Shown piece after piece: positions 1 through 7,152 of a DNA stretch of 7,152 nt (position 1 is its first letter; every line of letters begins with the position of its first letter). The position numbers and the translations under genes are program-made. The notes beneath the pieces were generated by a model. It made no database searches. It was not told where the DNA came from and saw only the letters and a program-made list of their open reading frames with translations. The DNA is from a virus (taxonomy: Duplodnaviria > Heunggongvirae > Uroviricota > Caudoviricetes). Location: positions 1 to 7,152 of IMG/VR virus record IMGVR_UViG_3300030035_000037; one strand, given 5' to 3'.

Positions 1-80
1 AACTGCAGGAACCAGTAGCCCGTTCCCACCGCTGACGTGGTGTATGACACACCTGTTGTGATTTTTTCCATCTGGTACAT
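1..80 (-). CDS. S: Class II holin (S21-like pinholin), N-terminal 26 codons only; gene continues beyond the window start
   Basis: Minus-strand translation from ATG (rc of 78-80) gives MYQMEKITTGVSYTTSAVGTGYWFLQ, closely resembling the recalled N-terminus of phage 21 S holin; dual-start Met1/Met4 as in holin/antiholin pairs; GGGAGA Shine-Dalgarno about 8 nt upstream. Not in the ORF track because it is truncated by the window edge. Confidence 0.7.
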   Translation of the reverse strand, partial: MYQMEKITTGVSYTTSAVGTGYWFLQ

Positions 81-155
81 ACCCCGTCTCCCGCAATCCG
101 GAAGCTCACAACAACAAGAGGGGCGTCAGCTCACACCGACAGCCCCTGCGCATGG

Positions 156-425
156 TTACATCATCATTTCGCCGTCAGGCTGAGGCTCACTGCTACCATC
201 AGGCTGAGACCCGACGCCATCTGAAACAGCACTGTCATCCGCAATGCCTTCCGGCTCCGGAACAGTCGGTGCGCCCAGCAGTTCATCCAGAATGGCATCC
301 ACTTCTGCATCAAGACGCGCCTCAAGGTTCTGCCGAAGTTGCTGTTTCAGTGCGCTTCTGACTTCTTCAGAGCGCAGGACTTCCTTCACTGCTTCAGCAG
401 TGACCAGCGATTTTATTTCTGACAT
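156..425 (-). CDS. Hypothetical small protein (89 aa) with a helical N-terminal half and a highly acidic Asp/Glu/Ser/Pro-rich tail
   Basis: ORF-track frame 156..539 begins at a TTG; the first ATG is at 425 (MSEIKSLVTAEAVKEVLRSEE...), with a weak GAGAAA Shine-Dalgarno. Sits between the esterase and the holin. No recognisable motif. Confidence 0.45.
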   Translation of the reverse strand: MSEIKSLVTAEAVKEVLRSEEVRSALKQQLRQNLEARLDAEVDAILDELLGAPTVPEPEGIADDSAVSDGVGSQPDGSSEPQPDGEMMM

Positions 426-462
426 GGTATTTTCTCGTTGAAAGGTGTTGTTAAGAAAGTTG

Positions 463-645
463 CTACGGAATGAGAGGCTCTTCGGGTTTTGTTCCGGCTG
501 ACTGACTGGCACTGATTTTCTCAGCGGCCCTTTTGTCAATCTGTCTGCGCCAGAAATCTCTCACGACTCTGTACCCACCCGAAAGAAGATACAGCACACA
601 GACCGCCGTACAGAAGTACAGCATCACCTGATGAATAAATGTCAT
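463..645 (-). CDS. Hypothetical small single-pass membrane protein (60 aa)
   Basis: ATG at 645; hydrophobic stretch FIHQVMLYFCTAVCVLYLL followed by a basic cluster RVVRDFWRRQIDKR (positive-inside); weak ribosome-binding site. Confidence 0.4.
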   Translation of the reverse strand: MTFIHQVMLYFCTAVCVLYLLSGGYRVVRDFWRRQIDKRAAEKISASQSAGTKPEEPLIP

Positions 646-663
646 AATTTCTTACCGTTATGG

Positions 664-692
664 TTGACAATGAGAATTGTTTTCATTTAAAA
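664..692 (+). promoter_or_regulatory. Candidate sigma70 promoter on the plus strand, antisense to the late operon
   Basis: Perfect -35 TTGACA at 664-669; -10-like TTTAAA/TTAAAA at 686-692 with a 16-17 nt spacer; predicted start near 698-700. Confidence 0.3.
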
Positions 693-742
693 AACCAATG
701 TACGAAAGCATCTTTTCTTTACATTCTCCATTGGGATTACCT

Positions 743-779
743 CCGCCAGCTTCCATTCCTGCCGCTGGCGGCTTTTTTT
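743..779 (+). terminator. Rho-independent terminator on the plus strand
   Basis: 8-bp GC-rich stem CCGCCAGC (743-750) / GCTGGCGG (764-771) with a 13-nt loop, followed by TTTTTTT at 772-778. On the minus strand there is no U-tract after the hairpin. Confidence 0.45.
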
Positions 780-784
780 AGCAA

Positions 785-2650
785 TTATGCGGCTGCTCCA
801 GCTTTGTTTGCTTTAACTTCCACCGTATCAATAAGTACAGGGTAGGTTTCTGCACTACCTGTAATATCCGTAATGACAAACCTGTTGAGTCCATTAGCAG
901 TATTGGCCCATTTCACCAGGTCAAACGCCTGTCCATCCACACCATCAAGCACCGGAGTAACATTAATGCTGTTACTGCCCTTAAATTTAAATGCAAGCGT
1001 ATGCCAGTCATGGTCGAATGCGCCAAACGTGCCAAGTTCTTTTTGTTGATTAACTGTATGATGGTATGCAACATTAATACTGGCTTTATCTGTCTGGACA
1101 AAGAAAGAACTCAGATGGCCTTCACCACCCTCACCCGGCCATTCCGCTATTCGCCAGTACAAACCAAAGGCATACTTGTTTCTGGTTGTCTCAAGATTGA
1201 CGTTTTCGGGGATTTTAAACCGGACAGCAATTTCCCCGCCTTTTTCCAGTAAAAGTTTTGCCTTGTCTGCAGCAATATCACAGTACATTGACCAGGATTT
1301 CGCGCTGTTATTTTTCTCAATTCGCAGAGCTTTATTGCCGCTGTCATCAACCAGTGTGCGTCTGCCATACATACCGTCCCAGCCATAAGGTTTCAGCTGA
1401 TTGTCTGTAGCTTTTTTGGCATCGTAAAAAATTACAGACTCTGAGGTGGTAACCGGCCTGTCTGGAACAACCACCCCGGCAGTACCATTAACAAACGCAG
1501 AAGACTTACCCGCGCAGCTCAGAATCGCCGTTGCCAGACGGTCGGAAATAATCCCACGGCGAGCCCATGAACTGAAATGGCTCGCCCTGTCCTGTGACGT
1601 CCAGGTGGCTGAGCTGTCACGCCATTTCGAACCGTAATAACCGATACCCGGAATGTCCGGGTCTTCTTCCGGTTTGTTCGTCGGCACATTCACCCCGTTC
1701 TCATCGGTCATGAACGGTACGAAATGGATATTCTTTTCCGTTTTATTTTTATAGCTGCCGTACACCGTCTGGTACGTGGATTCGTTCTTCTGCTTCCAGA
1801 AATACGTCGTGTCCCCGCATATCCAGGGAACACCGCCAGCAGAGCCACCGACGCACTGGCCTGCCATATCCGCCAGGTCTGCACGGAATTTATCAACCAG
1901 CGCACCAAACTGTGCGGCATGATTTGCCGGCGTACCGCCAAAATCAAATTCCCCCTGCATCCACACCACGGCAAACAGCACATTTTTCGGGTTCTTCTCC
2001 AGTGCCGCTTTTGTTCGACCGATAAGGTCCTTATACAGCGGCTTGTCCACACCCCAGCGGGTTGAATTCTCCGAGGCACCACTCGCGTCACTGTATGTGC
2101 CATCAGCTCCGGTGGTGAACGCTGAACCACCACGACAGCACGGAACCAGCAGAATGCCCGCATTCGCCGGTATAAACGGCAGCAGTTTTTTGGCGATATG
2201 CAGCCCCTGCCCCACGGTTCCGTACTGCCCCTTTGACAGGTCCGCTTTCGGATGGTTAAGACGGCTCATGTCCTGCACATCATGCAGACAATGGTCCGCC
2301 GGAATGATGTCGTTATATTTGCATGCTGCACCGCCCGGTGTCACCGTACTGCGACGCGCCAGTTGCTTAATACGCGGGTCCGGACGGTCATATGTCCCCG
2401 GCAGCGGAAGGCCTTCACCATACGACATGCCGTTTGACTGCCCTGCCAGAACCACAACAAAGTAATACTCCGGGTCGCTGGTGGCGCTGATTACTGCACC
2501 TTCTGCTGCAATCGCCTGCATCAGAGTATAAGGGGTTATGGCCACCGGACTACCAAACGGCTGCCAGCCCTCTTTCAGTTTATGTGTCAGCTTTTCCGCA
2601 AGATCTGACGGCGACGCCGCCCTGACAACATCATAGTGTTTAAATGCCAT
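785..2650 (-). CDS. nanS-p: Prophage-encoded sialate 9-O-acetylesterase (NanS-p type; N-terminal DUF1737-like region, SGNH/SASA esterase core, C-terminal carbohydrate-binding region)
   Basis: 621-626 aa ORF; GQSNGMSYGEG motif typical of SASA/SGNH esterases; conserved position downstream of the toxin/moron site and upstream of lysis genes in Stx-type phages. ORF-track start is 2665 (MVERTM...); ATG at 2650 (MAFKHYDVV...) is preferred because GGA lies 7 nt upstream. Confidence 0.88.
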   Translation of the reverse strand: MAFKHYDVVRAASPSDLAEKLTHKLKEGWQPFGSPVAITPYTLMQAIAAEGAVISATSDPEYYFVVVLAGQSNGMSYGEGLPLPGTYDRPDPRIKQLARRSTVTPGGAACKYNDIIPADHCLHDVQDMSRLNHPKADLSKGQYGTVGQGLHIAKKLLPFIPANAGILLVPCCRGGSAFTTGADGTYSDASGASENSTRWGVDKPLYKDLIGRTKAALEKNPKNVLFAVVWMQGEFDFGGTPANHAAQFGALVDKFRADLADMAGQCVGGSAGGVPWICGDTTYFWKQKNESTYQTVYGSYKNKTEKNIHFVPFMTDENGVNVPTNKPEEDPDIPGIGYYGSKWRDSSATWTSQDRASHFSSWARRGIISDRLATAILSCAGKSSAFVNGTAGVVVPDRPVTTSESVIFYDAKKATDNQLKPYGWDGMYGRRTLVDDSGNKALRIEKNNSAKSWSMYCDIAADKAKLLLEKGGEIAVRFKIPENVNLETTRNKYAFGLYWRIAEWPGEGGEGHLSSFFVQTDKASINVAYHHTVNQQKELGTFGAFDHDWHTLAFKFKGSNSINVTPVLDGVDGQAFDLVKWANTANGLNRFVITDITGSAETYPVLIDTVEVKANKAGAAA

Positions 2651-2843
2651 GGTTCTTTCCACCATCTGAAAAATGATTCTTTAAAATACCTGACATGTAA
2701 TACAGAAAAAACACAAAACCATACCTTAAATAAAAACCTCATCATCAAGCAGATATGCATGGATAAACTACAAGACGAGATATAAACCACCCTGCATTTA
2801 AATAAACAATAAACAACATCAGAAAAATAATTCTGCTCTATGG

Positions 2844-2870
2844 TTTACATTCAAAAATATCATTTATACT
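2844..2870 (+). promoter_or_regulatory. Candidate sigma70 promoter for the plus-strand cargo ORF
   Basis: -35 TTTACA (2844-2849) and -10 TATACT (2865-2870); spacer is 15 nt, which is short, so this is a weak call. Confidence 0.3.
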
Positions 2871-2910
2871 TTTCAGAACATCACCAGCAATGCATAAACA
2901 AGGAAACCAA

Positions 2911-3246
2911 ATGAAGTGGATTGTGATTGATACAGTTATCCAGCCATCATGCGGAATATCTTTTTCAGTCATATGGAGTAAAATAAAATTAATAATCTGG
3001 TATCAATCGGATGCTTTCTTACCTCCTGAAAGTATATTTACACTGACTCACACAGGCATCATGCTCAATAACAAAGTGCTACCTGTAACCATTTACAACG
3101 TAGTACCATTCAATAAAACATTCTGGAATTTAATCAAAAACAGCCAGGAATGCCCTACAAATACAGATAACGTATTGAATGAATGCTTTAATAACCGTTG
3201 CACTCTGCAAATATGTCCTTATGGGCTAAAACAACAAAGTCCATAA
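2911..3246 (+). CDS. Orphan hypothetical protein (111 aa) in an AT-rich island, opposite strand to the phage late operon; moron/cargo gene candidate
   Basis: ATG at 2911 with AGGA 6 nt upstream (the ORF-track start at 2890 lacks a ribosome-binding site); more than 110 open codons in visibly AT-rich DNA is unlikely by chance; 6 of 13 Ile codons are the rare ATA; four Cys cluster in the C-terminal 30 residues (C-x10-C-x4-C-x4-C). No family recognised. Confidence 0.5.
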
Positions 3247-3282
3247 GGAGTTTACTCACATCTGACAAAATCAATATAAACA

Positions 3283-3302
3283 GCCCCTCCGGAGAGGGGC
3301 TG
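3283..3302. terminator. Perfect 8-bp GC-rich stem-loop bounding the AT-rich island; possible terminator or mRNA 3' stabiliser for the cargo ORF
   Basis: AGCCCCTC cgga GAGGGGCT at 3283-3302, 37 nt after the cargo ORF stop; no clean U-tract on either strand. Confidence 0.35.
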
Positions 3303-3498
3303 GAGAGTGGCGCTATGTGCCATTGCATGGTGCCGGGTGCCTCCCGGTGAATTCAGTACCAGCACCTGAATCCGCGATTATCCCATATACCTACTCGCTG
3401 ATTGCCCCTCCGCACAGGGGGATTCACCATGCCAGTTTCTTTTAACAAACTCCCCGCAAACCAGACAACAGTCAACCGCCTGAATTGTGAGACATTTA

Positions 3499-3524
3499 AA
3501 AAAAAGGCCCGCAAAAGCGAGCCA
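3499..3524 (-). terminator. Rho-independent terminator of the tRNA operon (minus strand)
   Basis: Minus-strand GGCTCGC tttt GCGGGCC (3524..3507) followed by eight U (rc of A-run 3499-3506); begins 14 nt after the 3' end of the last tRNA. Confidence 0.7.
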
Positions 3525-3537
3525 GGGAAAATAAGTG

Positions 3538-3614
3538 TGGCGCGTTGTACTGGATTCGAACCAGTGACCGATTGCTTAGAAGGCAATTGCTCTGTCCGGC
3601 TGAGCTAACAACGC
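3538..3614 (-). tRNA. argO: tRNA-Arg, anticodon TCT (reads AGA)
   Basis: Manual fold of the minus strand: 7-bp perfect acceptor GCGTTGT/ACAACGC, D-arm GCTC..GAGC, anticodon loop CTTCTAA, T-loop TTCGAAT, encoded CCA. Gene symbol assigned only from the conserved ileZ-argN-argO order of Stx-type phages, recalled from memory. Confidence 0.9.
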
Positions 3615-3628
3615 AGGATACAGATAAT

Positions 3629-3704
3629 GAACCGCCTTCGGGGACCCGAACTCCGCGCAACCAGCTTCGAAGGCTGGCGCTCTTTCCTGATGAGCTAATG
3701 GCGG
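3629..3704 (-). tRNA. argN: tRNA-Arg, anticodon TCG; atypical (possibly divergent or degenerate)
   Basis: Manual fold: acceptor CCGCCAT/AAGGCGG (6 of 7 pairs), D-arm GCTC..GAGC, anticodon stem CCAGC/GCTGG with loop CTTCGAA, T-arm CGGAG-TTCGGGT-CCCCG (one A-C mismatch, G at the usually invariant A58), 3' TCA instead of encoded CCA. Exact 3' end is uncertain (3629-3631). Confidence 0.6.
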
Positions 3705-3711
3705 TATGTGA

Positions 3712-3787
3712 TGGTGGCCCTTGCTGGATTTGAACCAGCGACCTGGCGATTATGAGTCGCTCGCTCTCACCACTGAGCTAAAGGGCC
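3712..3787 (-). tRNA. ileZ: tRNA-Ile2 type, anticodon CAT (lysidine-dependent AUA decoder); a tool may call it tRNA-Met
   Basis: Manual fold: perfect acceptor GGCCCTT/AAGGGCC, anticodon loop CTCATAA, T-loop TTCAAAT, encoded CCA; overall very close to the recalled E. coli ileX sequence. Confidence 0.88.
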
Positions 3788-3796
3788 GGGAGCAGA

Positions 3797-3825
3797 ATAA
3801 TAATGGTGCGTAATTAATTCTGCAA
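3797..3825 (-). promoter_or_regulatory. Candidate sigma70 promoter for the tRNA operon
   Basis: Minus strand: -35 TTGCAG (3825..3820), 17-nt spacer, -10 TATTAT (3802..3797); predicted start 2-4 nt upstream of the mature 5' end of the first tRNA. Confidence 0.45.
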
Positions 3826-3836
3826 TCTCATCCGTT

Positions 3837-4886
3837 TCAAACGATTAAATCCTGAACTTCCCTGACTGTCTGCTCAAAACGTCCTGTCTCCAGTTCAACG
3901 CCAATCGCACGACGCCCGAGCGCCAGTGCCGCTTTTACCGTTGAACCCGACCCCATGAAAAAATCCGCAACCAGATCACCAGGACGACTGCTTGCGCTGA
4001 TTATCTGCTGCAGCATTTCTGCCGGTTTTTCGCACGGATGTTTCCCGGGATAGAACTGCACCGGTTTATGTGTCCACACATCCGTGTACGGCACCTGCGC
4101 CGTCACACCAAAATACCGCCGCAGATGTTTATATTCACTCTGCAGCTCCGCATACTGTCGGTTCAGTGAAGTATACGTATCCACCAGCTGGTGGTGGGGC
4201 TTTTCCAGTTCCCCCCGCTGATGCTTCTCTTCTGCCACCCTGGCAAACAGTGCCTGTAATTTCAGATAATCGCTTTCGTTCGGCAACTGCCACTGACTGG
4301 CACTGAACCAGTGCGACACCATGTTTTTCTTTCCTGTGGCATCTGCAATCTGTTTTGCCGTTATCCCCAGGGCCGCGCATGCATCACGAAAGTAAGAAAT
4401 CAGCGGGGCCATCACATGCTGTTTCAGTGCCCTGCCCTTCGCCTCATACCCGGCATCTTTCGGACGATACGGCCCCTGATAATGTTCCGCGAACAGAATG
4501 CGCTCTGTGGCGGGGAAATACGCCCGCAGGCTTTCCTTGTTGCACCCGTTCCAGCGTCCGGAAGGCTTCGCCCAGATAATATGGTTCAGCACACTGAAGC
4601 GTTCACGCATCATGATTTCGATATCAGATGCCAGGCGATGACCACAGAACAGGTAAAGACTTCCGGCAGGTTTCAGCACCCGCCAGAACTGCGCCAGACA
4701 CTGGTCCAGCCACTTCAGGTAATCATCGTCGCCCTTCCACTGGTTATCCCAGCCCTCAGGCTTCACTTTAAAGTACGGCGGGTCCGTGACTATCAGGTCA
4801 ACAGAATTTTCGGGTAACGACCGGATAAATTCCAGGCAGTCGGCGTTGATTAACTCACAACTGGATATTTTTACAGTATTAAGCAT
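3837..4886 (-). CDS. DNA methyltransferase, beta-class (motif IV before motif I), predicted N6-adenine specific; orphan (no cognate nuclease in window)
   Basis: 349 aa; SVDLIVTDPPY near the N-terminus (DPPY favours N6-adenine over N4-cytosine SPPY); AdoMet motif DFFMGSGST near the C-terminus; architecture of the N6_N4_Mtase family. Weak Shine-Dalgarno; a GATC overlaps the start region at 4887-4890. Confidence 0.9.
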   Translation of the reverse strand: MLNTVKISSCELINADCLEFIRSLPENSVDLIVTDPPYFKVKPEGWDNQWKGDDDYLKWLDQCLAQFWRVLKPAGSLYLFCGHRLASDIEIMMRERFSVLNHIIWAKPSGRWNGCNKESLRAYFPATERILFAEHYQGPYRPKDAGYEAKGRALKQHVMAPLISYFRDACAALGITAKQIADATGKKNMVSHWFSASQWQLPNESDYLKLQALFARVAEEKHQRGELEKPHHQLVDTYTSLNRQYAELQSEYKHLRRYFGVTAQVPYTDVWTHKPVQFYPGKHPCEKPAEMLQQIISASSRPGDLVADFFMGSGSTVKAALALGRRAIGVELETGRFEQTVREVQDLIV

Positions 4887-4980
4887 GGATCATTAAGCCT
4901 GTCTCTGATAGGCTCATTCTGCTTTTGCGCAAAGCAGTGGGCCTGAGGTTTGCTTGTGAACCCAACGCATGAGCAGATGG

Positions 4981-5007
4981 CTGGTGGGTGCCCCTAACAC
5001 CCACCAG
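4981..5007 (-). other. Perfect 10-bp GC-rich inverted repeat with 7-nt loop in the methyltransferase 5' leader
   Basis: CTGGTGGGTG ccccTaa CACCCACCAG at 4981-5007; no U-tract on either strand, so not a canonical intrinsic terminator. Confidence 0.5.
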
Positions 5008-5026
5008 CCGCCCATTTACCACAAAT
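5008..5026 (-). repeat. Second, truncated copy of the pR' -10 core (ATTTGTGGTAAAT followed directly by GGGCGG)
   Basis: Minus strand 5026..5008 ATTTGTGGTAAATGGGCGG versus pR' (5441..5411) ATCTGTGGTAAAT-TTGCTCTAACGAT-GGGCG: 12 of 13 identical then GGGCG, with the 13-nt initial transcribed segment absent. Confidence 0.55.
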
Positions 5027-5050
5027 AAAAAAGCCTTCACTGCGGAAGGC
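5021..5050 (-). terminator. Rho-independent terminator after the small winged-helix-like ORF
   Basis: Minus strand GCCTTC cgcagt GAAGGC (5050..5033) followed by TTTTTTATTTGT (5032..5021); the ORF stop codon (5037-5039) lies inside the stem. Confidence 0.6.
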
Positions 5051-5234
5051 GTCTGTAACAACCGAACTGATAGTCTGCCAGACCCGCCATAACCAGCTGG
5101 GTCAGTATTAACTGGCAGCGTTCGCGTGAAAGGTAAGTATTCTGTGCAATCTCCCCGACTGTCGCCGGTTCGGTAACGCTTAATTCATTAAACACTACTC
5201 TGGCGGTTTCTGTCATATCCTGCTGTTTTAGCAT
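5037..5234 (-). CDS. Small hypothetical protein (65 aa) with a predicted winged-helix/HTH-like segment; possible DNA-binding regulator
   Basis: ATG at 5234 preceded by AAGGGA; ORF-track version 5037..5321 starts at a GTG and is less likely. Segment TVGEIAQNTYLSRERCQLILTQLVMAGLA has the pattern of a winged-helix recognition region (PapI/FaeA- or MarR-like); weak, pattern-only assignment. Confidence 0.45.
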   Translation of the reverse strand: MLKQQDMTETARVVFNELSVTEPATVGEIAQNTYLSRERCQLILTQLVMAGLADYQFGCYRRLPQ

Positions 5235-5354
5235 GTCTTTTTCCCTTTTCCGGTTAACGTGACACACCAATAACTCTTGTCGAAAAAGCCAGCAAGCTGA
5301 AAGACAGGTATTCACCGCCACCAGCGCGTTTACTGTACTGACGCGATTTCAGTC

Positions 5355-5378
5355 ATAAAAAACCCGCCAGGCGGCGGG
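5355..5378 (-). terminator. tR'-like Rho-independent terminator downstream of pR'
   Basis: Minus strand CCCGCC gcct GGCGGG (5378..5363) followed by TTTTTTAT (5362..5355). Confidence 0.7.
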
Positions 5379-5421
5379 GTGTAAAAAATCTTCTAACGTC
5401 AGGCATAAAACGCCCATCGTT
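5355..5421 (-). ncRNA. Predicted short pR' leader transcript (about 65 nt), analogous to lambda 6S RNA / the StxS sRNA of Stx phages
   Basis: Predicted start at A 5421 (7 nt after the -10) and tR' U-tract ending near 5355; contains an A/U-rich single-stranded stretch before the terminator hairpin. Existence inferred from promoter plus terminator only. Confidence 0.5.
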
Positions 5422-5455
5422 AGAGCAAATTTACCACAGATTCGGGAAAAATCAA
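5416..5455 (-). promoter_or_regulatory. Late promoter pR' (lambda-like) with extended -10 and promoter-proximal pause element; presumed Q engagement site
   Basis: Minus strand -35 TTGATT (5455..5450), 16-nt spacer, TGg-TAAATT extended -10 (5433..5428), then TGCTCT and AACGATGGG at +1 onward; the -10 plus AACGAT arrangement matches lambda pR' as recalled from memory. Lies 6-45 nt downstream of the Q stop codon. Confidence 0.65.
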
Positions 5456-5460
5456 CAACA

Positions 5461-6282
5461 CTATCGCGTTACCCTCTTTAACTGCCGCTCCGCCCATGCC
5501 TCTTCAATGTCAAACCGAACCACCAACGTATCGTAAAAGCGTTTCACTGATTTTTTCCACGTATCAAGCGTGATAGCACTCGTCACTTTGCATATGGCAT
5601 TAAATGCCTCCGTTGATGGTAGTCTTTCACAGCCACGACCACCACAACGCTGGCAGTCTCTGATAACAGGCATACCACGTTTTACCGACTCTTCACGATG
5701 AATGGCGACACCACGCCCACGGCAATCCTTACAGGCGGTGGAAACCTCACCCTTTCCGCCACACTCCGGACAGGCAACTTTTACCACCTCCCTGACTTTT
5801 TTCCATTCTTCCCAGTAAGACGGATACACACCTTTCGTACACTTTGCCCATACCGGCGGCTTACCATCCGGATACTGGACCTTGTTTGTAAAAACTACGC
5901 TTTCAATAAATTTTTCCCCATAGCAACAAGGGCACTGCTTTTTACTCGCTGCGCTGCGGGCATAATCCTCAAAAGCGTACGAAGCCATAATGCGCATCAC
6001 TACCGGTTTTATTTCTGCCGGGAGTTTTCTTAACGCCGCCACGCGATCACACCGACTGAGTGCATATTCTGTCAGCAATTCTGTTGCCCGCTCTCTGTCA
6101 TTCATACTAATGCCCATTTTCCCAAGGAACGCAGAAAACCCCATCTCAGCCCGATTCTGTGTCATGCCCTGCGCGGCCATCACATCAGTGATACTCAGCG
6201 CATCTTTCGACGTTGAGGCCGATGCATCAGTCAGGCCGGGGGATTTTGGGGAGTAGTATTTCGGTAAATCTTCCAGTTTCAT
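5461..6282 (-). CDS. Q: Late-gene antitermination protein Q, lambda-Q family, with an enlarged Cys-rich zinc-binding region
   Basis: 273 aa; blocks matching recalled lambda Q: YSPKSP, DVMAAQGM, ASYAFEDYARSAA, C-terminal LKRVTR; multiple CxxC pairs; located immediately upstream of the lambda-like pR'; start overlaps the rusA stop (ATGA). Confidence 0.88.
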   Translation of the reverse strand: MKLEDLPKYYSPKSPGLTDASASTSKDALSITDVMAAQGMTQNRAEMGFSAFLGKMGISMNDRERATELLTEYALSRCDRVAALRKLPAEIKPVVMRIMASYAFEDYARSAASKKQCPCCYGEKFIESVVFTNKVQYPDGKPPVWAKCTKGVYPSYWEEWKKVREVVKVACPECGGKGEVSTACKDCRGRGVAIHREESVKRGMPVIRDCQRCGGRGCERLPSTEAFNAICKVTSAITLDTWKKSVKRFYDTLVVRFDIEEAWAERQLKRVTR

Positions 6283-6659
6283 TTTTTGACCTGCCCTTCA
6301 AGCATTATGGGGTAAATCTTCACCCCCAGACGTCCACCAGATACTGGCTGAGCACGAACGATATTGATTTCATCAAACTGCTCATCGTCCATTAGCAACC
6401 CCGCATGCGTCAGCGCATCCAGCGGCGCTTTCAGAATATTGTCCAGGTCACGGCGGCGCTTATCCGGTGGTTCTGCAATAATTTTTATTGCCAACCTTCC
6501 GGACAGGCTTAATTTCAGCCGCTGCTGGCGAACAATAAGCGCCACTGCCCGGCGATAACGCTCCCCGGCTTTTGATACAAAATATGTGCTGCCACGACGA
6601 CGCCAGTAAGTGTTCACCGTTGGCGGGTAAGGCAAAACAAATTCTATGCGTTCAGTCAT
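6279..6659 (-). CDS. rusA: Crossover junction endodeoxyribonuclease RusA (Holliday junction resolvase)
   Basis: 126 aa; PYPPTVNTYWRRRG near the N-terminus and RRRDLDNILKAPLDALTHAGLLMDD acidic catalytic region match the RusA family pattern; canonical position just upstream of Q. Confidence 0.88.
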   Translation of the reverse strand: MTERIEFVLPYPPTVNTYWRRRGSTYFVSKAGERYRRAVALIVRQQRLKLSLSGRLAIKIIAEPPDKRRRDLDNILKAPLDALTHAGLLMDDEQFDEINIVRAQPVSGGRLGVKIYPIMLEGQVKK

Positions 6660-7152
6660 TTATGCTTTCCACTTCAAAACACCCGAATTTCTCGCGTGCA
6701 TTAAAAAACGAATCAGCAACAACAGCTGGCTGCCGTGTTTTTCTTCAAAATCTTTTACCCCGGCGTGTAGTTCGCTATGGCATTTACGGCACAGCGGAAT
6801 AACAAACAAATCATCAGCCTTTGTTCCCATCCCTCCCAGTCCATGACCAATGATGTGATGCGGATCATCTGCCTGATTGCCACACGTCATGCATTTCTGC
6901 GTTTTTACCCAACGCGTGTATACAGGCATCTCTTCCCGTTGTGATTTCTGGCGCTGGAGATACTGAGCCGGTGACTCCGGATCAACGGCAATGCTGACCA
7001 CCGTCTTTTCCTGTGGCGGGTTTTGCTGGTGGGCGTGAGGCAGCGGCGCAAGATTTTTTGTGCGCTGCTTCAGTATGCTGGTGGCGGTCTGCTCTCCCGG
7101 TACGATGTCGCTTTCACGGTACATTGAGCGGATTTTTTCCGCACGCAACCCC
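6660..7152 (-). CDS. Cys/His-rich HNH-motif protein (DUF968/YdfU-like), C-terminal part; likely continues beyond the window end
   Basis: Frame is open to the right window edge; C-terminal motif CMTCGNQADDPHHIIGHG...IPLCRKCHSELH (CxxC ... HH ... CxxCH) resembles an HNH zinc-binding nuclease fold; stop TAA abuts the rusA ATG. Family name is from memory and unverified. Confidence 0.55.
   Translation of the reverse strand, partial: GLRAEKIRSMYRESDIVPGEQTATSILKQRTKNLAPLPHAHQQNPPQEKTVVSIAVDPESPAQYLQRQKSQREEMPVYTRWVKTQKCMTCGNQADDPHHIIGHGLGGMGTKADDLFVIPLCRKCHSELHAGVKDFEEKHGSQLLLLIRFLMHARNSGVLKWKA

Follow-up and report, generated by a model that had tools for sequence, protein, structure and literature searches.

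The DNA analyzed here, hereafter the window, is a stretch of 7,152 nucleotides from a virus of the class Caudoviricetes (IMG/VR record IMGVR_UViG_3300030035_000037, positions 1–7,152), and its element of interest is a cassette of three adjacent tRNA genes on the minus strand, in the order CAT, TCG and TCT by anticodon. The same three genes were called by ARAGORN and by the Rfam tRNA model RF00005, which has a gathering score of 29 bits. The minus strand is the sense strand of the phage, common to the genes for the Q antiterminator, a DNA methylase and an esterase, in agreement with an earlier note on this DNA that had placed three tRNAs on the sense strand. Coordinates are written below in the direction of transcription, and features lie on the minus strand unless stated otherwise. 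The first gene, ileZ (3787–3712; 72.5 bits), is a tRNA-Ile2-type gene with anticodon CAT, and the last, argO (3614–3538; 70.1 bits), is a tRNA-Arg gene with anticodon TCT, corresponding to the codons AGA and AGG; both encode the 3′-terminal CCA. Between them lies argN, a tRNA-Arg gene with anticodon TCG (3704–3631, followed by TCA at 3630–3628), which scores 43.4 bits. As the CCA is absent, the call of argN is offset by one base in ARAGORN (3705–3629) and likewise in the NCBI pipeline, with A(−1) paired to U73. The cassette is preceded by a sigma-70-type promoter (3825–3797) and followed by an intrinsic terminator (3523–3498).

The element is the ileZ-argN-argO cassette of lambdoid and Shiga-toxin (Stx)-type E. 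coli prophages. A 651-nt region covering it matches 311 phage records, mainly of Stx-converting phages, many of which label the genes ileZ, argN and argO; the match to phage Nil3 is 95% identical over 625 nt. In prophage Sp5 of E. coli O157 Sakai (annotation NC_002695), the genes ileZ2, argN2 and argO2 are annotated directly 5′ of stx2A, and the window genes are identical to them at 76/76 (ileZ), 69/77 (argN) and 76/77 (argO) positions. The three genes were reportedly first described in the 1999 paper of Plunkett and colleagues on the 933W genome. A search of the available literature by the names ileZ, argN and argO found nothing, and the naming used here rests on database annotation. The cassette, a textbook element of lambdoid prophages, those with stx included, has long been named and carries annotation in hundreds of records from phages and E. 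coli; its confirmation in the window adds nothing new. The modest new point is an inequality of constraint within it, as ileZ and argO are near-invariant among related loci and argN is highly polymorphic and often wrecked. A moron, in lambdoid phage genomics, is a gene that sits between phage genes and brings along a promoter and a terminator of its own. We consider it very probable that the window holds the known, moron-like ileZ-argN-argO cassette, equipped with its own promoter and terminator and carrying a decayed, hitchhiking copy of argN.

The Rfam alignment confirms all four defects that the earlier note had described in the middle tRNA. The acceptor stem contains a non-pairing A6·A67, the T stem an A52·C62 mismatch, the T loop (UUCGGGU) has a G at position 58, and the discriminator U73 is followed by TCA and not by CCA. 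The gene departs from a canonical elongator tRNA, which has full stem pairing, A58 and an encoded CCA; to our knowledge, the encoded CCA is present in all E. coli chromosomal tRNA genes. It still passes the tRNA covariance model, with the lowest score of the three genes. Rejection of the gene by tRNA-finding programs, which the earlier note had named as one outcome that would undo its reading, did not occur: ARAGORN calls argN, and the NCBI pipeline annotates the identical sequence as tRNA-Arg with no pseudogene flag.

For comparison, we collected 120 IMG/VR loci by their match to the 3′ half of ileZ, and analyzed the 110 that had enough flanking sequence. The commonest argN allele among them has an A-U pair at 6–67, a G-C pair at 52–62, A58, and CCA after U73. 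None of the defects of the window copy is shared by this common allele; they are features of the window allele and not of the gene. Sakai argN2 is of the canonical kind, as is the argN of strain TUM10008, the closest overall relative of the window, in which differences from the window gene begin at the T arm. Compared with the canonical allele, the window gene has lost a T-stem pair (G52A), the T54-A58 tertiary pair (A58G), an acceptor pair (T67A) and the encoded CCA (C74T). Eight of its 77 positions differ from Sakai argN2, and four of these differences damage the structure or the CCA end, while it shares its D arm, A20 included, and its anticodon arm with canonical alleles. The Rfam score falls with the lesions, from 58.4 and 56.0 bits for canonical alleles to 54.0 for an allele with G58 only, 50.4 for one with A52 only and 43.4 for the window lineage. 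In the minimum-energy fold of the window gene, the T arm is replaced by a shifted 5-bp hairpin (54–58 with 63–67) that uses G58 and A67, and a cloverleaf-like fold is kept in three canonical-type alleles (n9, n5a and the G58-only n2b). As the cloverleaf probability from thermodynamic folding is low even for canonical alleles and argO, only the qualitative loss of the T arm is used here.

The states of argN differ widely among the 110 loci. The gene is canonical at the four sites in 38 of them, carries G58 only in six and A52 only in one, combines G58, G67 and the absence of CCA in another, and has A52, G58 and A67 together in 16; no TCG tRNA was called in the remaining 48. Three of the 16 three-lesion loci, the window included, also lack CCA. 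All 16 sit with an STnc100-type downstream context, and the three-lesion allele appears to have had a single origin. Among the 48 loci without a TCG tRNA, 26 have a scrambled argN between intact ileZ and argO. Nucleotide diversity over the 58 loci with all three genes is 0.0745 for argN, 0.0165 for argO and 0.0045 for ileZ, the last value being biased low by the way in which the loci were collected; argN is thus about 4.5 times as diverse as argO. Within the three-lesion lineage, the corresponding values are 0.019 for argN and 0.003 for both argO and ileZ, and three of the six segregating argN sites hit G10, G50 and C74. A scan of a genome collection with the 5′ half of argN returned only four species representatives and no deeper divergence, which suggests a narrow, Escherichia-centred range for the gene; about 1,230 complete E. 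coli genomes carry argN.

Several other configurations of the argN slot were seen. In its commonest single state, unrelated sequence (…GAGCAGACGACACGATAACAGGG…) stands in place of the anticodon arm, as at locus L079 (1504–1603, minus strand) and some 19 loci like it; ileZ and argO are intact there, and neither ARAGORN nor Rfam calls a tRNA in the slot. Three loci (L020, L047 and L093) carry a chimaera that begins as argN and ends as argO (…GAACGCCAGCCTTCTAAGCAATCGG…), an expected product of recombination between the two Arg tRNA genes; at L020, ARAGORN and Rfam call ileZ only. An alternative cassette, ileZ-Lys(TTT)-Thr(TGT)-Gly(TCC), is present at L060 (2197–2506, minus strand) and 13 similar IMG/VR loci. 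The second tRNA of this cassette (Rfam 44.4 bits) has the acceptor, D and T arms of argN with a different anticodon arm, C33 in place of U33, and a compensated C7-G66 pair.

In view of the lesions and the variation, the window argN is probably an impaired copy in decay that travels with two tRNAs under selection. Its product would most likely be poorly folded, processed or charged, making the gene a hypomorph or a pseudogene. The earlier note had left open whether the middle tRNA is impaired, diverged or specialised; an impaired, diverged allele is favoured here, and nothing points to specialisation. Several findings weigh against decay. The gene scores well above the Rfam gathering threshold, and RefSeq genomes annotate the identical sequence as an ordinary tRNA-Arg. 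A20, C35 and G36, which are Arg identity elements, are all intact. E. coli can add CCA post-transcriptionally and some phage T4 tRNAs rely on that addition, so that a tRNA gene without an encoded CCA need not be functionless. Moreover, the allele is common: an exact 77-nt copy is carried by 132 complete genomes of E. coli, O104:H4 among them, where it is annotated as tRNA-Arg, and this abundance fits neutral hitchhiking but would fit retained function as well. Sakai argN2 and the Nil3 allele lose the cloverleaf in folding as well, which leaves the fold result weakly supportive. Among 32 distinct argN alleles, no base pair had changed on both sides and the covariation score was no better than that of shuffled alignments; because the alleles are too similar to give a signal, structural selection can be neither proved nor disproved from them, and the case for selection on the canonical argN structure is limited to invariance and G-U wobble. 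Our search of the literature found no expression, processing or charging data for the window argN.

Several of these points would be expected if the middle gene were still a working tRNA-Arg(UCG), with its mismatches and G58 tolerated, its 3′ end trimmed and CCA added by the host enzyme; all three tRNAs would then contribute to decoding. Such a tRNA would also be in keeping with the D and anticodon arms shared with canonical alleles, with the spread of the allele into at least three upstream contexts, and with a moderate enrichment of CGA and CGG in related phage open reading frames (ORFs). We nevertheless regard it as unlikely, since the four changes are independent and all fall at positions of architecture or 3′-end recognition, none of them neutral, and lower the score by 13–15 bits relative to canonical alleles. 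Furthermore, the lineage has gained further pair-breaking changes that argO and ileZ of the same loci have not, the minimum-energy fold lacks the T arm, and the frequent destruction of the gene elsewhere marks it as dispensable. A non-decoding role for the degraded gene, as a spacer for processing by RNase P or RNase E, a source of a regulatory tRNA fragment, or a decoy or replacement substrate for a tRNA-Arg nuclease, seems very improbable. It would account for the lack of any clean deletion of the element among three-lesion loci, for the near-invariance of the acceptor 5′ half and the D arm even in wrecked copies, and for the way in which A58G and T67A jointly build the alternative hairpin. 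However, no covariation backs any alternative structure, the slot tolerates heavy scrambling at the 26 loci with intact neighbors and replacement by an argN-argO chimaera at three others, and hitchhiking explains the persistence of the element with no extra assumption.

The earlier note had also proposed that the cassette is transcribed from its own promoter and ends at a strong terminator. The promoter consists of a −35 hexamer TTGCAG (3825–3820), a 17-nt spacer and a −10 hexamer TATTAT (3802–3797) that ends 9 nt before ileZ; transcription is expected to start at about position 3790, a few nucleotides ahead of the gene. The pattern TTG-N20-TATTAT has one match in the window, compared to 0.04 expected by chance. 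Across the 110 loci, at least five distinct upstream contexts are found (the 3′ end of a methylase gene, a tR′-type terminator abutting the promoter, and three others). TATTAT is constant in all of them and a TTGNNN hexamer (TTGCAG, TTGCGG, TTGAAG, TTGCAA or TTGATT) always lies exactly 17 nt 5′ of it. Hexamers and spacing are kept even in two contexts in which the spacer sequence is entirely different. The terminator is a stem-loop, GGCTCGC-TTTT-GCGGGCC (3523–3506), followed by eight T residues (3505–3498). Its 7-bp stem contains six G-C pairs and folds at −14.3 kcal/mol (z = −3.8), and the hairpin and T tract are retained, with variants of loop and stem, ahead of at least three different downstream sequences.

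Differential RNA sequencing of the Stx2a prophage Sp5 in strain Sakai identified a primary transcription start site driving the tRNAs (Sy et al., PMC7547250). Sp5 has the same TTGCAG-17-TATTAT, at an equal distance from ileZ. Two observations count against an autonomous promoter: the start site was mapped in the Sp5 homologue and not in the window prophage, and a generic promoter scanner made no call at this site. This miss is due to the −35 hexamer, which agrees with the consensus at no more than three of six positions. It could be argued from this poor match, and from the position of the cassette downstream of the late promoter, that TTGCAG-17-TATTAT is fortuitous and that the tRNAs are made only from the Q-antiterminated late transcript or by other read-through from upstream. 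This is most improbable, given that hexamers and spacing persist while the spacer and all upstream DNA are swapped, that so few matches are expected by chance, and that the published Sp5 start site is associated with the same promoter sequence. We judge that the comparative evidence for the promoter outweighs the miss of the scanner. Thus, a promoter and a terminator of its own, and expression in the lysogen independent of Q, are supported for the cassette as the earlier note had claimed, the experimental part by homology with Sp5.

Like the morons of lambdoid phages, the cassette comprises a promoter, a payload and a terminator that move as a unit among phage backbones. Unlike them, its payload is three tRNAs and not a protein gene, and, as it points in the same direction as the late operon, read-through transcription should reach it as well. 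A lambda-like late promoter PR′ and its terminator tR′ lie directly after Q (5455–5357). PR′ consists of TTGATT (5455–5450), a 16-nt spacer and TAAATT (5433–5428), with the pause motif AACGAT at 5421–5416; an alignment with lambda PR′ shows no difference over GGTAAATTTG and AACGATGGG, nor in the −10 TAAATT and AACGAT. The likely tR′ is a G+C-rich hairpin (5378–5363) followed by a T tract, identified by a terminator scan. The cassette is about 1.6 kb downstream, inside the Q-dependent late transcription unit, and from this position Q-dependent read-through should raise its expression on induction. A PR′ at the site of the STnc100-type RNA, which would have left the tRNAs upstream of the late promoter, was also considered and is ruled out by the lambda-like PR′/tR′ directly after Q. 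The lambda-like PR′ is paired here with a Q of non-lambda type (PF03589, 273 residues), and the location of tR′ only ∼40–60 nt 3′ of PR′ implies a very short terminated PR′ transcript.

These elements suggest how the cassette may operate. In the lysogen, the cassette promoter would produce a precursor of ∼300 nt ending at the hairpin-T8 terminator, which host RNases presumably cut into three tRNAs. On induction, Q-modified polymerase starting at PR′ would pass both tR′ and the cassette terminator and so supply additional tRNA just as the late genes are translated. The ileZ product, an ileX-type copy, would read AUA after lysidine modification by the host TilS, argO would read AGA and AGG, and argN, with its UCG anticodon, would read CGA and CGG. 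The degraded argN probably persists through its physical confinement between two selected tRNAs.

The earlier note had called both ileZ and argO textbook genes. This holds for argO, which is fully paired in the Rfam alignment, differs from Sakai argO2 at one position and is the commonest argO allele among the related loci (36 copies), but not quite for ileZ, which carries an A27·C43 mismatch. Sakai argO2 (positions 1641–1717 of the Sp5 locus, L123) has G in place of A as nucleotide 37 in its anticodon loop (CUUCUGA), a variant also found at two IMG/VR loci. ileZ is 68/76 identical to ileX of E. coli K-12, the gene for a lysidine-modified tRNA-Ile2 with anticodon CAU. The acceptor pairs C4:G69 and C5:G68 are determinants for TilS. 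Both are present in ileZ on an ileX-like rather than a Met body, and the gene also shares the anticodon loop and encoded CCA of ileX. It differs in being phage-borne, in having U6-A67 in place of C6-G67, and in having A27·C43 where ileX has G27·U43. A gene identical to the window ileZ is called tRNA-Ile by PGAP, the NCBI pipeline, and ileZ presumably reads AUA once modified.

Codon usage was tallied for the codons that these tRNAs would serve. Eight sense-strand ORFs of the window contain, per 1000 codons, 8.8 ATA, 7.2 AGA, 7.2 AGG, 3.9 CGA and 9.9 CGG; the values for 542 distinct long ORFs of the related loci (157,632 codons) are 9.9, 7.2, 5.0, 5.5 and 10.9, respectively. Approximate values for E. 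coli K-12 are ∼4.3, ∼2.1, ∼1.2, ∼3.5 and ∼5.4. Relative to these K-12 values, the codons of ileZ and argO are enriched two- to four-fold and those of argN 1.1- to 2-fold. The tally proposed by the earlier note thus finds ATA, AGA and AGG raised and CGA less so, and the lower enrichment of the argN codons fits weaker selection on argN. The cassette probably aids the translation of AUA-, AGA- and AGG-rich phage and cargo genes.

An AUA-rich cargo ORF near the tRNAs, as the earlier note had described, is indeed present on the plus strand (2890–3246; 35% G+C), with six ATA among its 118 codons. Its product is a member of the IraM anti-adapter family, with matches to NF007393 (161.7 bits; cut-off 121) and phrog_4407, and its equivalent in TUM10008 is annotated IraM. 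IraM is an inhibitor of RssB and thereby stabilizes RpoS. The large esterase ORF was also considered as the AUA-rich cargo and is ruled out by its content of four ATA in 626 codons. The link that had been drawn between tRNA supply and cargo translation is less secure than the ORF itself: the ORF lies inside an island of 26–39% G+C, a composition that would give such a bias anyway, and a functional connection between ileZ and the IraM-family ORF is no more than plausible. Promoter-like sites occur on the plus strand near this ORF, at 2803–2831 and 2962–2989.

The window cassette closely resembles those of 933W and Sakai Sp5, with the same genes, order and anticodons, TTGCAG-17-TATTAT and terminator hairpin; as in Sp5, it lies 3′ of Q, PR′ and tR′ and 5′ of cargo and lysis genes. 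Unlike in Sp5, stx does not follow the cassette, its place being taken by an STnc100-type small RNA (sRNA), the IraM-family ORF and an esterase. The upstream sides differ as well, as the window has a complete methylase gene, whereas Sp5 keeps only a 3′ remnant of it, ∼100 nt long (L123, 1310–1430), between tR′ and the tRNA promoter. The remnant suggests that part of the methylase gene accompanied the cassette in its transfer between phages. A non-Stx lambdoid prophage of E. coli O104:H4 (NC_018661.1, tRNAs at 2164651–2164900) is identical to the window in the 77-nt argN, the argN-argO spacer and the terminator, and likewise has STnc100 and a SASA esterase downstream. It differs in having a helix-turn-helix gene and not a methylase upstream, a promoter TTGATT-17-TATTAT with another spacer, a Q of a different, shorter type, and two extra changes in argO.

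The cassette is situated in the late region, 3′ of Q, PR′, tR′ and the methylase gene and 5′ of the sRNA, esterase and lysis genes. In the order of transcription, the window encodes a DUF968 protein (7148–6660), RusA (6659–6279) and the 273-residue Q (6282–5461; Pfam PF03589), then two small ORFs between Q and the methylase, and a complete N6/N4 DNA methylase just upstream of the cassette (4886–3837). Beyond the tRNA terminator are the STnc100-type sRNA (3461–3272; Rfam 132.4 bits), a 626-residue esterase with DUF1737, SASA and DUF6645 domains (2665–785), and a DUF826 protein. For the tRNA genes themselves, annotation pipelines list the lesion-bearing argN as an ordinary tRNA-Arg, which is of slight relevance for counts of functional phage tRNAs and for models of CGA decoding in pathogenic E. 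coli. The STnc100-type sRNA is a full-length Rfam match with a strong terminator (3302–3281). Between the tRNA terminator and the esterase, it occupies the slot that stx has in Stx phages. According to a 2026 preprint, STnc100 is related to PasD, a prophage sRNA located ahead of genes for sialic-acid esterases.

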